DNA of 64,000 nt from an uncultured bacterium (lineage in GTDB: Bacteria > Patescibacteriota > Dojkabacteria > SC72): positions 6,485 through 70,484 of the forward strand of contig CAIVJR010000005.1 in the NCBI GenBank assembly GCA_903906305.1, in the 5' to 3' direction. The position numbers and the translations under genes are program-made. Positions 53,853 to 58,257 of the stretch are shown piece after piece. The notes beneath the pieces were generated by a model, which was not told the DNA's origin, ran no database searches, and saw nothing but the letters and a program-made list of their open reading frames with translations. Positions within the stretch are counted from its first letter, which is position 1. Each line of letters opens with the position of its first letter.

Positions 53853-55055
53853 ATGAAAACTGCCAACATATTCAAATTAGTACTAATAGCTGGGATATCA
53901 ACCTCACTAGCACAAACCGTATTCGCTACAGACCTAGATTCAGGGAATTACAAAATCGTAGGAGCTACAACATCCGCAGGCGGAGGACTACTAGACTCAG
54001 CATCAGGTAACTACAGCCTCATGAACTCCATTGGAAATATATCCGCAGATCCTAGAAATTACTCTACTAATTACAGACTACAACAAGACCCATCCGCAAA
54101 CTTCATAGCTGCACAACCAGGAATACAATGCTTTGAAACCGTTTCAGATGGAAGTACTAACTGTTTAACAGGACCAACCGAATTAAGTGGAGGAATGGTT
54201 GCAATCTGTGGAACAGGAGGATGTTATGACAAAGCTAGGTTTGAAGTCATAACTAACAGTAACCCATCAGACACACTGTATACCATCGCCATATCAACGG
54301 ACAATTTTGTAAATGACATACAATATATTGATGGAGCTACATTCAGACCAGAGGCAGAAGGAAACCATGATATTAATGATTTTAGAACACAAGCATATTG
54401 GGAAGCTGAGGTATTCAATATTAAGGCTCTAGCATCAAATACCCTTTACTCCATTAAAATCTCTGCATTACATGGAGATTTTACACAATCCGATTACAGC
54501 AAAACCTCAAGTACAACCACAGGAATTGGAAGCATATTTTTTGATATTGATATAGCTTCATCAGGTGGAACAACAGCAGAATCGAGCTCACCATATACCG
54601 TAGCATTCTCCGGAGCTGACGACCTAGTCGGAGGAGCTGCAGCTACAACCGCACCAAACTTAGTTTGGTTAGATATTGATAGCAACTCATCAGGAGGAGT
54701 CGCAGTAATACAATTTGGTAAAAATGGAGGCCTATACAGTACAACCACAACTCAAACCATATCCTCATCATCCACCAATCTCGATACCACATTAGAAGGA
54801 TTTGGATTACAAAGTTTCTATATGTACAATGATACTTCTGGATTCTTAGGAGATCTTACCGCTACTACTAATTACGCAGGCACACTTAACAATGTAGGCG
54901 CAATTACAACTACTGCAAACAAGATATATGATGGAGATGGACCAATCAGTAATGGAAGAGTTGCAATGTATTTGATCGCAAAAGCAGGTACAGACAAAGT
55001 TCCTGCTACCGACTATTCTGAAGAAATCTATTTTGTTTTGGTACCTAGGTACTAA
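53853..55055 (+). CDS. Secreted Thr/Ser/Gly-rich protein of unknown function
   Basis: Signal peptide MKTANIFKLVLIAGISTSLAQTVFA, then 400 aa rich in T, S, G and N. Confidence 0.5.
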   Translation: MKTANIFKLVLIAGISTSLAQTVFATDLDSGNYKIVGATTSAGGGLLDSASGNYSLMNSIGNISADPRNYSTNYRLQQDPSANFIAAQPGIQCFETVSDGSTNCLTGPTELSGGMVAICGTGGCYDKARFEVITNSNPSDTLYTIAISTDNFVNDIQYIDGATFRPEAEGNHDINDFRTQAYWEAEVFNIKALASNTLYSIKISALHGDFTQSDYSKTSSTTTGIGSIFFDIDIASSGGTTAESSSPYTVAFSGADDLVGGAAATTAPNLVWLDIDSNSSGGVAVIQFGKNGGLYSTTTTQTISSSSTNLDTTLEGFGLQSFYMYNDTSGFLGDLTATTNYAGTLNNVGAITTTANKIYDGDGPISNGRVAMYLIAKAGTDKVPATDYSEEIYFVLVPRY

Positions 55056-55187
55056 TCGAGCATACCCCCTGCTCCAATGTTTTTAGAGAATATTATTATT
55101 AACACATAATTATTTGACAAAGCATACATATTTAGATTAAATTATATTTGTATTAAAGGTACTCAATTATATTTCTGCCCTAAAAAT

Positions 55188-56324
55188 ATGAAAAAGTCTG
55201 GCTTGATCACAGGAAGTATCTCCGTTCTCGTTTTAACGGTATTCTTTATACTCATTTCTCCCGTATTTACCTCTAAAGCAGGTGCATTAACTGCAGCATA
55301 TCTCTACTTAAGTAGAATTCAATCCAATGTTAATGGCGTAGCTCCAAATACCGTTGAATATGTATTAGCAATAGATACAGCACAAACAATACCATCAGGT
55401 GGTACAGTAACAATTTCATTTCCTGATGCAGATGATGCTGGATGGTGTAGAACAGTAGGTGCTTTAACAGTGGCAGGAGTTGCATCCTCAATAGTAGACT
55501 ATGCCGCAACCAATTGGGCAATAGATGCAGTTATGCCTGACTCAGGCTCTGCTTTGACAGCCGTCTGTGCACAAGGATCAGGAGCATCATCAGTAGACAA
55601 AATTACAATCTCAAATGTTGGAACCCTAACCGCAGGTACTACATATGGTGTAAAAATCACAAATGGATCGACTGCAGGTGTAATTGGAACTGCTGCCGCT
55701 GCTGGAGAACATGATGTAACTGTTGAAGCCAAAAATGGAGCAACCATTGATTCAAGTACATTTGGCCTATACCTGGTTGCAAGTGATACAGTTGTTGTCT
55801 CTGCTACAGTTGCATCAGTACCATCAGTCACATGTTCAATTAGTACAAGTGCTGTAAGTCTTGGTTCATTGTATCCTGGTGGTTCATATGCAACCGTAAA
55901 TCATACAATCTCAACTACTACCTCAACCACAACAAGTGGATACTACTGGGCCTCATACGGCGCAGGAGATGGCTCTACAGATGCAGGACTTTACAAATCC
56001 ACAGCAACTACATATTTGATTGCATCAACTGGCAGTGGAACAATTGGGCTTACAGGTGTAAATGCTGAAGGCTTTGGAATGACAGTGTCAGACCCAGATG
56101 CTGCAGGAGCAGCTATAGTACCTGCAGATTTCAGCGACGGAACCGCAGGGACATTTGGTTCCTTGGACCGAACTGTCGCAGGAGCACAGATGATTCTTTA
56201 CCAAAATGGTGCACAAGCATCTGCAGAAAATGCTACAATAACCTATGGTGCGAGAGCTGGAACATCTGCAGTTGCAGGTAGTTACTCAGAAAGTGTCACC
56301 TTTGTTTGCGGTGGTTATTACTAG
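55188..56324 (+). CDS. Secreted Thr/Ala/Gly-rich protein of unknown function
   Basis: An N-terminal hydrophobic signal or anchor, then a 378-aa low-complexity T/A/G/S-rich ectodomain. Confidence 0.5.
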   Translation: MKKSGLITGSISVLVLTVFFILISPVFTSKAGALTAAYLYLSRIQSNVNGVAPNTVEYVLAIDTAQTIPSGGTVTISFPDADDAGWCRTVGALTVAGVASSIVDYAATNWAIDAVMPDSGSALTAVCAQGSGASSVDKITISNVGTLTAGTTYGVKITNGSTAGVIGTAAAAGEHDVTVEAKNGATIDSSTFGLYLVASDTVVVSATVASVPSVTCSISTSAVSLGSLYPGGSYATVNHTISTTTSTTTSGYYWASYGAGDGSTDAGLYKSTATTYLIASTGSGTIGLTGVNAEGFGMTVSDPDAAGAAIVPADFSDGTAGTFGSLDRTVAGAQMILYQNGAQASAENATITYGARAGTSAVAGSYSESVTFVCGGYY

Positions 56325-56329
56325 CATCT

Positions 56330-57343
56330 ATGAAAAACATACATACCAATATCTTTAAAGGAATATTTGTCCTGCTATTCTTCTTTTCTTTGTCGCTTGT
56401 TTTAGCTAATCGTACATATGCACAAACCTCTCTTTCAATTGGTACTGCACCTACTTCAGAAAAACTCAAACTCTCCCAAGGTCAGAAATACAATGGTGAA
56501 TTAGTAGTATGGAACTTAACTAACAAAGCAATAACCTACAACATTGTAGTCAAAGGCTTTAGACAGATTGAAAATCAACCTGGTACCGCGATAATGCTGA
56601 CAGACACAGAAGAATCCAAATCCCTCTACACAGCTACCGATTGGACCAAGGTAAGTATCAGTAACATTGAATTAATACCAAACAAAAACGAAAAAATATA
56701 TTACGAAATCAATGTACCTAAGGATGCAACCAAGGGAGAATATACTGTAATCATAGCTTTCATATCTGAAAATGAAGAGAAATTAACTGAAAGTGGTGCA
56801 ACCACAACCCTTACCTTAGGCATGCCCATATTAGTTCAGATTGGAGATGAATTTGTAGAGAATGCAGAACTTTTAAAGTTCTCAACAGACAAAAACTTCT
56901 ATGAGTACCCTACCCTTACATTTGATACAAGGATTAAAAATCTAGGAGATACACATATAACCCCGGTGGGAGAAATCGTCTTAAGCAATATCTTCAAACA
57001 AGAGATAGCGAGAATACCATTTAACGCGAATAACCAAAGTATATTAAGAGACAATACAGGTAACTACGAAACACTTTGGAATCTAGGAACCTTCCTAACT
57101 AAGGACAAAGCGATCGTATTAGGACCAATTAAAGCTAACTTAGTACTCACCTACCGAACATTCCAACCAGGATTTGCACCATTAACATCAGAGATCACAT
57201 TCTGGATTCTACCTTGGAAGATAATATTGATAGCCGTAATTGCAATCATAGCCATTGTTGTCATTGTAAAGGTCGTAAGAAAGAAAAGACGACCTGTTGT
57301 ACAAACTCAATATACTCCATACTCTTACCCATTACCAAGATGA
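56330..57343 (+). CDS. Cell-surface protein with signal peptide and C-terminal TM anchor (DUF916/DUF3324-like architecture)
   Basis: The start was set at the internal Met (MKNIHTNIFKGIFVLLFFFSLSLVLA...). The beta-rich ectodomain carries P-x5-G-x-Y-x-x-I (PKDATKGEYTVIIAF). The C-terminal TM helix ends in RKKRRP. Confidence 0.5.
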   Translation: MKNIHTNIFKGIFVLLFFFSLSLVLANRTYAQTSLSIGTAPTSEKLKLSQGQKYNGELVVWNLTNKAITYNIVVKGFRQIENQPGTAIMLTDTEESKSLYTATDWTKVSISNIELIPNKNEKIYYEINVPKDATKGEYTVIIAFISENEEKLTESGATTTLTLGMPILVQIGDEFVENAELLKFSTDKNFYEYPTLTFDTRIKNLGDTHITPVGEIVLSNIFKQEIARIPFNANNQSILRDNTGNYETLWNLGTFLTKDKAIVLGPIKANLVLTYRTFQPGFAPLTSEITFWILPWKIILIAVIAIIAIVVIVKVVRKKRRPVVQTQYTPYSYPLPR

Positions 57344-58257
57344 AGCTAAAAACCTGCCTCATAACTACAATCCTTTGCATATTAGGGATATCATTCTTAA
57401 CCCCTTCAAAAGTACAGGCAGATTCTGTCACCCCATCAATATATGAGACTTCAATTCTAAAAGAAGCAAATGGAAAAGGAAAAGTAACTTTTAAGAATGA
57501 AGGAACTACCCCAGTAAAAATAACCCCGCGTGTTTCAGCATACGATCCAAAGACTCTACAACTCATATCAGAGGAAAAAACTCTTTTTCTAGTATTAGAT
57601 AGAGAAACATATACCGTACAACCACAATCTTCATTGATATTGAACTACGAGATCAAGCCACCAACTAATCTTTCAGCAGGTACATATTTCAATCTCATCA
57701 TATTTCAAAAATCAGCAGACTTAACTGTAACTAATCAACCAAACCAGTTAGGAACAGTAGAAAATCTTTCGCAACTTGTAAGCATCCATATATTGGAAAA
57801 GCAGACCACATATCCATTACAGATAAAGAGTGATTTTGCACAAATAACTATGGAAATCACCGATGCAGGGATACCATTCCTCAAACCCATGACTGTTAAA
57901 TATACATATCAAAATACAACCAACTATGTATTACAACCACTTGGAGAGATACAGTCATTTGATCTAAAAAGTTCATACTCCCCTGAGTATATACAAATCA
58001 ATGCTACAGGCAAAAAACTCTACCCCGGGGATAGTATAGAAGAGACGATAACCATGGATAAATGGCATATATCGGACATATTGTTTGGAAGAAAAATTGT
58101 CGGAAGATTCTACAATGGCATCGATCAAAACTCGATAATCAAGGAACAATCTCAAAACACCTACTACATATATCTAGCCATAATCGCAGGAACATTAGTC
58201 ATGGTATTTGTATTGATTAAATCAATACAAGCAGACAAAAAGAGAAAAACTACTTAG
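57340..58257 (+). CDS. Cell-surface protein with signal peptide and C-terminal TM anchor (paralogous architecture)
   Basis: The start was set at MKLKTCLITT..., where the ATG overlaps the preceding TGA (ATGA coupling). It contains KPPTNLSAGTYFNLIIF and a C-terminal TM with a KKRK tail. Confidence 0.5.
   Translation: MKLKTCLITTILCILGISFLTPSKVQADSVTPSIYETSILKEANGKGKVTFKNEGTTPVKITPRVSAYDPKTLQLISEEKTLFLVLDRETYTVQPQSSLILNYEIKPPTNLSAGTYFNLIIFQKSADLTVTNQPNQLGTVENLSQLVSIHILEKQTTYPLQIKSDFAQITMEITDAGIPFLKPMTVKYTYQNTTNYVLQPLGEIQSFDLKSSYSPEYIQINATGKKLYPGDSIEETITMDKWHISDILFGRKIVGRFYNGIDQNSIIKEQSQNTYYIYLAIIAGTLVMVFVLIKSIQADKKRKTT

Follow-up and report, generated by a model that had tools for sequence, protein, structure and literature searches.

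A conserved four-gene locus of Dojkabacteria with predicted membrane anchors of the WxLIP family and unannotated secreted partners

Four consecutive plus-strand genes, which we call P1 to P4, lie within a stretch of 64,000 nucleotides (nt) from an uncultured bacterium of the Dojkabacteria, a lineage of the Candidate Phyla Radiation (CPR). Homologs place the organism in Candidatus Dojkabacteria (candidate division WS6). We refer to the whole stretch as the window (contig CAIVJR010000005.1 of assembly GCA_903906305.1, positions 6,485 to 70,484). Public records name the relatives of these four proteins as hypothetical, and hardly any of them has a Pfam domain precomputed. An initial annotation compared the last two with the DUF916/DUF3324 proteins that accompany WxL-domain surface proteins in Firmicutes, and took the likeness to be structural only. 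The locus therefore raises the question of whether this is analogy or homology, and of what the first two genes encode. In our reading the cluster is a conserved Dojkabacteria cell-surface display complex of the WxL/WxLIP type, to which we assign a probability of roughly 0.55.

The case begins with P3 and P4. The Pfam family PF06030 (WxLIP_PGBD, formerly DUF916) is matched by 23 of 28 relatives of P3 at E ≤ 0.01. P4 has no match to PF06030, and among 23 relatives of P4 there is just one, at E = 0.044. Eight annotated DUF916 proteins were gathered for profile-profile comparison. Using hhalign, the P3 family aligns with these WxLIPs at 98.7% (E = 1.6e-16) over 288 columns, from the signal peptide to the transmembrane (TM) helix, and the P4 family aligns at 98.4% (E = 4.5e-15). 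P1 and P2, compared with the same WxLIPs as controls, reach 3.1% and 1.7% respectively. The P3 and P4 families also align with each other (97.2%, E = 3.8e-11, 236 columns) and are thus paralogs, with P4 evolving about twice as fast as P3. Profiles were required for these relationships, direct BLASTP of P3 against P4 and of P1 against P2 being uninformative. The block P-x5-G-x-Y-x2-I that had been noticed in both proteins is present as described in P3 (P130-I141), and P4 has the version P-x5-G-x-Y-x2-L-I. The two blocks align with each other in both BLASTP and hhalign.

Relatives in other CPR lineages (loci L076-L082, 26-29% identity) bridge the distance to the annotated proteins. One such intermediate, encoded at 5785-6840 of L080, scores 44.5 bits against PF06030, above the gathering score of 27.3, and is recognised by the profiles of P3 (3e-48) and P4 (1.7e-10). 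The P4 profile matches distant CPR WxLIP-like proteins with E = 1e-8 to 1e-19. On searching with the L080 intermediate by tblastn, annotated DUF916 proteins were found down to E = 1e-13 with both domains covered, on plasmids of Clavibacter, Streptomyces, Paenibacillus, Bacillus, Enterococcus, Lactiplantibacillus and Deinococcus. With 337 amino acids (aa) P3 falls within the WxLIP length range of 320-380 aa, and P4 is slightly short at 305 aa. The AlphaFold2 (AF2) model of P3, with a predicted local distance difference test score (pLDDT) of 76.5, has a signal helix, two β-sandwich domains and a TM helix. For this model Foldseek ranks 9i25_C (E = 8.7e-11, 284 columns aligned) and 9i1y first among PDB structures, the former bearing the title 'WxLIP from Enterococcus faecium locus A bound to long WxL'. 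The second β domain of the model (residues ~173-293) is spanned by the hhalign and the Foldseek alignments alike. A search of PDB sequences with the P3 family profile gave nothing useful. Given the WxLIP profile matches, the CPR intermediate that exceeds the threshold and the top fold match in the PDB, we conclude that P3 and P4 are, as judged from their sequences, truly homologous to WxLIPs, and that the structural analogy is homology.

All four proteins had been taken to be exported, and the sequences bear this out. Each has a basic and then hydrophobic N-terminus followed by an A-x-A-type site (VFA|TD, AGA|LT, TYA|QT and VQA|DS in P1 to P4), and in all four family alignments the variable N-terminus turns conserved exactly at that site. 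P3 and P4 each have a single C-terminal hydrophobic helix followed by a K/R-rich tail, in agreement with the proposed combination of signal peptide, TM helix and basic tail (hydropathy; helix 296-320 in the P3 model). Both are paralogs within the DUF916/WxLIP superfamily that leave by the Sec route and span the membrane once. In P1 and P2 no further hydrophobic segment or TM helix occurs, nor an LPXTG or a lipobox; both are Sec-exported all-β proteins that lack an anchor of their own. Three other modes of attachment were considered and rejected. A sortase/LPXTG system would need a motif that is absent from P1-P4, the G-F-T-L-x-E leader of a type IV pilin is in none of the four proteins, and there is no lipobox of a lipoprotein. 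The cytoplasmic tail of P3 (57290-57340; alignment A1) has in most members a conserved ...LPK or ...PLPR end after the K/R stretch, which hints at an intracellular contact.

What, then, are the two secreted proteins? They had been described as low-complexity Thr/Ser/Gly/Ala-rich proteins of a kind that forms surface fibres or adhesins. The composition is as described, with T+S+G+A contents of 42% for P1 and 52% for P2, but the description of low-complexity fibre proteins does not hold. Mean Shannon entropies over 20 residues are 3.28 and 3.11 bits for P1 and P2, like the 3.28 and 3.41 bits of P3 and P4. Identity across the phylum is 54-100% in the P1 family and 55-100% in the P2 family, with invariant Cys, Trp and Gly columns. 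The invariant cysteines number four in each (C93, C104, C119 and C124 in P1; C87, C127, C216 and C374 in P2), and P2 is confidently folded into two β-sandwich domains in its AF2 model (pLDDT 82.9). Neither protein has a Pfam or NCBIfam match, and the P2 family profile found no useful match among PDB sequences. Foldseek of P2 returned only generic tandem-immunoglobulin (Ig) proteins (integrin legs, MSCRAMMs, CfaE and CupB6), with TM-scores of 0.15-0.25.

Some of these fold matches could be read as those of a fibre assembled by donor-strand exchange. P3 and P4 would be membrane-tethered chaperones, P2 would polymerise head-to-tail and P1 would be the tip adhesin. The chaperones CfaA and Caf1M are among the Foldseek matches of P3, and CfaB and the tip adhesins CfaE and CupB6 are among those of P2. 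The N-terminal strands of P1 and P2 are conserved right after the signal-peptide cleavage site, and the two domains of P2 are weakly self-similar. Yet the matches are of the generic tandem-Ig kind, with TM-scores of 0.15-0.28, and there is no usher, sortase or LPXTG in the conserved block. P3 and P4 are homologous to WxLIP and not to PapD-like chaperones, and CPR bacteria are monoderm-like, so would lack an outer membrane for the usher. We regard such a fibre as very unlikely.

P1 and P2 share a C-terminal domain, which we call the partner domain. Direct comparison of P1 188-396 with P2 142-374 using hhalign is weak (26%, E = 7e-4), and the colinear motifs GLY(S/K), EGFG and A(R/K)AG...Y-x-E-x-(I/V)-x-F occur in both. 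Starting from the C-domain of either protein, jackhmmer searches of 1252 local sequences, a small database to which the E-values refer, converge on all P1, all P2 and each secreted protein encoded beside a WxLIP-like gene in L076-L081. They never recruit P3, P4 or unrelated open reading frames (ORFs), a convincing specificity. The partner domain comprises ~165-175 aa and is C-terminal in every case. It makes up proteins of 199-225 aa alone and terminates others of 448-987 aa, and its genes adjoin WxLIP-like genes. Outside the Dojkabacteria the CPR partners end in ...G-x-Y-x3-[IV]-x-Y-[IV]-x-T-P-x-F. The small ones share the N-terminal S-x-N-Y motif of P1, and the larger ones the A-L-T-x-V-S-D-x-[LM]-S-R start of P2.

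Within P2 the C-domain is better conserved than the N-domain. An exhaustive HMMER search of 1.84 billion proteins with the P2 profile found 145 representative clusters at E ≤ 1e-3, some of them long, multidomain proteins with Ig-like, PKD, Fn3 or LamG modules. In 12 relatives of P2 (P0412, P0417, P0422, P0424, P0437, P0439-P0441, P0446, P0453, P0467 and P0482) the N-domain is kept and a dockerin takes the place of the C-domain. These dockerins are type I-like, with two D-x-N-x-D-G loops and ...FSI[LM]L..WTG. Dockerin is a known protein-anchoring module. Since it replaces the partner C-domain in these relatives, the exchange supports, by analogy, a role of the C-domain as an anchoring module. 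P1 varies in another manner. Relatives of ~630 aa have a Laminin_G_3 (ConA-like lectin) insert of ~230 aa, located after ...ARFEI or after ...CFETDT depending on the lineage (alignment A3; P0273, P0294, P0312 and P0357 compared with P0316; loci L018, L023, L025, L035, L054 and L071). The two different positions indicate independent insertions, and the inserts argue for a binding role of P1.

The four genes form a fixed block. A pattern scan using one genome per GTDB species found a P3 relative encoded in 284 genomes. We re-annotated 73 Dojkabacteria loci, of which 58 have all four genes and 15 are cut by contig ends. The order P1-P2-P3-P4 is found in all 58 of the complete species-level loci, far beyond chance. 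The cluster is present in essentially every sampled Dojkabacteria genome, amid the housekeeping genes RNase HII, CysS and RecR. A convergent RNase HII gene lies 3' of P4 in 64 loci, usually with CysS beyond. The conserved block consists of four genes only, there being no extra small gene in the re-annotated loci. In other CPR lineages secreted partner genes alternate with WxLIP-like genes, and P2 and P3 nearly abut like the partner-anchor pairs there. One locus, L021 (3595-5981), has two tandem copies of P2 with one P3 and one P4. Many GTDB-representative metagenome-assembled genomes with the cluster (L003-L071, L076-L082) have record titles such as 'uncultured Candidatus Saccharibacteria', 'uncultured Gammaproteobacteria' or 'Clostridiales bacterium' (P0246). 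Such titles are probably generic or wrong labels given by submitters.

How might such a complex be held together? For Firmicute WxLIP the prediction is that a hairpin loop becomes ordered as a strand and thereby completes the sandwich of WxL (PMC10599100), and a WxLIP-long WxL complex from Enterococcus is in the PDB (9i25). As the anchor is homologous to WxLIP and the partner analogous to WxL, we propose that membrane-anchored P3 and P4 would capture the C-domain of P1 and P2 outside the cell, in the way that WxLIP tethers WxL. Capture would probably occur by a loop inserted as a β-strand into the C-domain, and P1 and P2 would thereby be held on the cell surface. The most conserved segment of P3, FRQIENQPGTAI, with the invariant residues Q79, N82, G85, T86 and A87, falls in a loop that the monomer model predicts with low confidence. 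It is a candidate docking loop, like the WxLIP hairpin that becomes ordered on WxL binding (PMC10599100). The proposal is consistent with the low confidence of that loop, with the better conservation of the P2 C-domain and with the adjacency of P2 and P3. The main structural subunit would be P2, which is better conserved than the other three and may have a promoter of its own. P1, given that LamG inserts have been gained in some lineages, would be the subunit for variable binding, perhaps to a host cell or a substrate. Host attachment is plausible, some lineages having lectin-type inserts in their predicted P1.

A number of results weigh against this reading. Concerning the anchors, P3 itself scores 24.4 bits against PF06030 and does not reach the gathering score of that family (27.3). 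DUF3324 (PF11797) went undetected by Pfam in P3 and P4. Of the DUF916/DUF3324 architecture originally proposed, the DUF916 part stands by virtue of hhalign, the L080 intermediate and Foldseek, and the second domain is reached only by the full-length alignments of hhalign and Foldseek. The TM-scores of P3 in Foldseek are low (0.35/0.44), with many tandem-Ig proteins close behind. The motif NQIDKxxxYFDLK is conserved near the N-terminus of Firmicute WxLIPs (PMC10599100). P3 lacks it and has a gap of nine residues opposite NQIDKSLNY in the hhalign alignment, and it keeps ...EKLKLSQGQ... opposite the WxLIP sequence FDLMMKPGE. Concerning the partners, the Pfam WxL model matched none of the window proteins, nor any of 31 relatives of P2, 10 distant partners or 52 representatives. 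The partner domain compared with either classical or Paenibacillus/Clavibacter-type WxL gives 1-4% by hhalign, and no WxL chain is found in the top 50 Foldseek hits for P2. Concerning the pairing, the distance-matrix correlations assign no anchor to a partner, the mirror-tree partial correlations being 0.63 for P1-P3 compared with 0.58 for P1-P4, and 0.41 for P2-P3 compared with 0.31 for P2-P4. The ratio of partner to anchor is not strictly 1:1, with two P2 genes in L021 and four partners with two anchors in L080.

Is the partner domain nevertheless a WxL domain? The hhalign comparison used two WxL alignments and two partner-domain alignments with a relaxed mact setting. As a positive control the Paenibacillus/Clavibacter type joined classical WxL at 100% (E = 1e-39). 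Neither P1 nor P2 has a W-x-L motif, P2 having G-Y-Y-W-A-S and V-T-F-V-C at the corresponding positions, and the partner-domain profile scores ≤8 bits against real WxL proteins (profile to sequence). P1 and P2 as WxL proteins were therefore rejected, on the hhalign values, the lack of a Pfam match or W-x-L motif and the absence of a WxL chain among the top 50 Foldseek hits. The failure of the initial annotation to identify a WxL motif was correct, the Pfam, hhalign and motif checks all being negative, with no Pfam WxL match in ~95 partner proteins. Only the last strand resembles WxL, as G-x-Y-x3-[LIV]-x-[WYF]. CPR partners end ...AGTYTTVFTYVVTPTF and ...AGSYSESVTFVC, a Paenibacillus WxL protein that passes the Pfam WxL threshold (30.1 bits) ends ...AGTYKSVFTYTATSGI, and classical WxL ends ...GEYVSTLTWTLLDAP.

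Beside the DUF916 gene of Clavibacter phaseoli pCCh (L083, 4101-4727) lies a 208-aa 'hypothetical protein' with the WxL-like motifs GAGWYVLGSASDF ... DAGDYSSTITLSLFE. It has no Pfam WxL match, but when aligned with four Paenibacillus WxL proteins it joins classical WxL at 100% by hhalign. Thus the Pfam WxL model may under-call actinobacterial members.

It could be, then, that the C-domain of P1 and P2 is an extremely diverged true homolog of WxL that has lost both Trp-x-Leu motifs, and that the cluster is a CPR ortholog of Csc/WxL in which the domain binds peptidoglycan and WxLIP. The logic of the cluster, two secreted proteins with a WxLIP, is the same (PMC10599100, PMC9772566). The domains are of similar size (~170 compared with 160-190 aa) and occupy the same strictly C-terminal position, and both have small and large forms. 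The last strands of AGTYTTVFTYVVTPTF and AGSYSESVTFVC match those of AGTYKSVFTYTATSGI and GEYVSTLTWTLLDAP, forced alignments bring a central G-[YW]-x-[VS] motif into register, and the Pfam model already misses the WxL-like Clavibacter neighbour. The negative profile and motif results given above and the lack of a WxL chain among the top 50 Foldseek hits count against such descent, above all the 1-4% by hhalign compared with 100% for the control, and we consider it rather doubtful.

The features of the locus are collected in Table 1. The ORFs of the four consecutive genes were confirmed on the plus strand, as was the coupling of the last two genes by an ATGA overlap at 57340-57343. The mechanical ORF starts of P3 and P4 are upstream TTG codons (56306 and 57214). 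The predicted true starts are the ATG codons at 56330 and 57340, because the resulting lengths of 337 and 305 aa equal those of independent gene calls on other contigs. Only 5 nt separate the P2 stop from the P3 start, and the spacer between P1 and P2 is 132 nt. The promoter-like site in that spacer may give P2-P3-P4 a separate transcription start. In the consensus scan of the region promoter-like sites are not enriched (17 found, 20.8 expected), and terminator-like sites number 6 with 3.4 expected, which is weak evidence. The packing of genes downstream is very tight. The 3' ends of P4 and RNase HII converge with an overlap of 8 nt (58250-58257), and on the minus strand the mechanical ORF calls for RNase HII and CysS share 38 nt (59115-59152).

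Table 1. Features of the P1-P4 locus. Positions are those of the window; residues are numbered in each protein.
Feature	Position	Strand	Residues	Description	Basis
ABC-2-type ATPase	52843-53832	-		lone, DrrA/GldA-like; divergent from P1	Pfam and NCBIfam matches
P1	53853-55055	+	400 aa	secreted (predicted)	ORF
P1 signal peptide (predicted)			1-25		
P1 other parts				S-x-N-Y repeat motif at N-terminus; four-Cys loop; Fn3-like middle	
P1 shared C-terminal partner domain	54501-55052	+	~217-400		jackhmmer and hhalign link to P2
Terminator-like hairpin and T-run	55058-55084	+		directly 3' of P1 stop	consensus scan only
Promoter-like TTGACA-18-TAAATT	55114-55143	+		in P1-P2 spacer	consensus scan only
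P2	55188-56324	+	378 aa	secreted (predicted)	ORF, alignment A2, AF2 model
P2 signal peptide (predicted)		+	1-33		
P2 N-domain	55287-55802	+	34-205		
P2 shared C-terminal partner domain	55803-56321	+	206-378	final residues ...AGSYSESVTFVCGGYY	
P3	56330-57343	+	337 aa	WxLIP/DUF916-family type I membrane protein (predicted)	
P3 signal peptide (predicted)			1-31		
P3 PGBD-like domain	56423-56845		32-172		
P3 second β domain	56846-57208		173-293		
P3 TM helix	57215-57289		296-320	followed by basic tail to PLPR	
P4	57340-58257	+	305 aa	fast-evolving P3 paralog	
P4 signal peptide (predicted)			1-27	followed by two β domains	
P4 TM helix	58165-58227		~276-296	followed by basic tail	

P2 differs from the other three proteins in the manner of its evolution. 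Its distance matrix correlates with those of RNase HII and CysS at 0.09-0.13, compared with 0.78-0.83 for P1, P3 and P4. The difference may be linked to the divergent ATPase gene upstream of P1. Between lineages that have the ATPase and are separated by the deepest split, P2 is still 65-70% identical, compared with 50-52% for CysS. In lineages without it P2 identity is 47-63%. Compared with the P2 of the window (loci L001-L070), the deepest lineages have 65-70% identity and nearer ones fall to 47-51%. At comparable CysS divergence P2 identity is 0.66 for pairs that both have the ATPase and 0.52 for pairs that both lack it. P1, P3 and P4 show no such rate effect. The tracking of slow P2 evolution by the presence of the ATPase is a lead and not a finding, there being few independent events.

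The strong conservation of P2 might also be that of a surface-layer (S-layer) or sheath-like lattice, in which P2 would self-assemble on membrane stalks of P3 and P4 with P1 as a minor component, serving envelope integrity rather than adhesion. At the deepest split P2 outdoes a housekeeping protein, CysS, the cluster sits among housekeeping genes in essentially every sampled genome, the Thr/Ser-rich composition is like that of glycosylated S-layer proteins, and P2 possibly has a separate promoter upstream. But Pfam and NCBIfam find no SLH or other S-layer or anchoring domain, mature P2 is small for a lattice subunit at 345 residues, and there is no evidence for its self-association. Moreover, the rapid divergence of P2 in several clades is atypical of an essential lattice and typical of exposed antigens. 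A lattice is thus unlikely.

The ATPase itself resembles DrrA, and matches GldA over its full length. It had been asked whether it is conserved with the cluster. Of 49 scorable loci, 18 have it next to P1 in divergent orientation, the deepest branches among them, with a gap of ~20-45 nt and variable genes beyond, and in a neighbour-joining tree of CysS and RNase HII it has apparently been lost at least 2-3 times. No permease or multi-TM protein neighbours it in the window or in 15 other loci. It may be an accessory of the cluster and is not among its constant members. Beyond it in the window are two apparently paralogous small minus-strand ORFs (52114-52443 and 52498-52791; 109 and 97 aa) with the motifs ...vLD.LP..V..F.Y... 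and ...W..E.A..W.L.D.

The association of the ATPase with P1 and P2 might point instead to a substrate-capture complex, in which an extracellular polymer or nutrient would be the ligand of P1 and P2, or the export or modification of P2 would depend on the ATPase. This would accord with its close placement beside P1 down to the deepest branches, with P2 being slower only where the ATPase is adjacent, with the lectin-type LamG inserts of some P1 and with the role in carbohydrate use proposed for Csc clusters (Siezen et al. 2006, PMC1534035). However, there is no permease or solute-binding protein, the ATPase is missing from about two-thirds of the loci, the correlation rests on 2-3 independent losses and the cluster contains no glycoside hydrolases. 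We find it quite improbable. A wider form of the tethering proposal is put forward tentatively. The C-domain could be a new CPR-specific anchoring module that replaces WxL as the ligand of WxLIP, with P1/P2 on P3/P4 forming the principal surface structure of Dojkabacteria and making contact with the host, and with the ATPase coupled to P2.

We can compare the proposed display complex with known systems. It shares with the chaperone-usher pili (CFA/I, Caf1, Cup) the use of two-Ig-domain proteins that would complete the β-sandwich of a subunit by strand insertion, and there are weak Foldseek matches. In contrast to those pili there is neither usher nor outer membrane, and the Dojkabacteria 'chaperone' is membrane-anchored and WxLIP-homologous. 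In cohesin-dockerin display a modular C-terminal domain of secreted proteins likewise docks to a cell-bound receptor, and 12 P2 relatives have a dockerin. No cohesin or dockerin is encoded in the window, and the likeness is functional only. Closer are the DUF916-only loci of Actinobacteria and Deinococcus (Clavibacter phaseoli pCCh, Streptomyces goshikiensis plasmids), the closest annotated relatives of the CPR intermediate (tblastn E = 1e-12 to 1e-13). Like the Dojkabacteria cluster the actinobacterial loci have a small secreted neighbour that Pfam does not call WxL. Unlike the CPR partner domain the Clavibacter neighbour retains a GW-type first motif and joins WxL by hhalign, and DUF916-only loci have a single anchor gene in a glycoside hydrolase context.

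The closest known system is that of the WxL/WxLIP (Csc) clusters of Bacilli (Enterococcus, Lactiplantibacillus, Listeria, Bacillus; PF13731, PF06030 and PF11797; structures 9i1y and 9i25). P3 and P4 are homologous to the WxLIPs of Bacilli and like them have a signal peptide, two β-sandwich domains and a C-terminal TM helix. As in Csc clusters, at least two secreted neighbours have a strictly C-terminal all-β domain of ~170 aa in small and large forms, and as in WxL the last strand of that domain has the motif G-x-Y-x3-[LIV]-x-aromatic. In other respects the systems differ. The Dojkabacteria partners have no WxL motifs or detectable WxL homology, there are two WxLIP paralogs where Csc clusters have one, the small LPXTG protein (CscD) is absent from the Dojkabacteria cluster, P3 lacks the NQIDKxxxYFDLK motif of Firmicute WxLIPs, and the host lineage is CPR and not Firmicutes.

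Firmicutes account for more than 91% of known WxL sequences (PMC9772566), and the WxL/WxLIP system is regarded as a Firmicute speciality, mainly of Bacilli, tied to adhesion and virulence. Our literature search found no paper linking DUF916 to CPR lineages. In the Dojkabacteria, a CPR lineage without cultivated members, the predicted anchor half of this system belongs to the core of the whole phylum. It occurs there together with another partner domain, which carries no annotation and would deserve to be defined as a family. Four 'hypothetical proteins' of essentially every Dojkabacteria genome thus gain names and a testable mechanism, and are candidates for the surface structure by which these presumed episymbionts contact their hosts. 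The locus suggests that anchors of the WxLIP type are not confined to Firmicutes, and belong to an older and more general monoderm display platform than the WxL literature implies.

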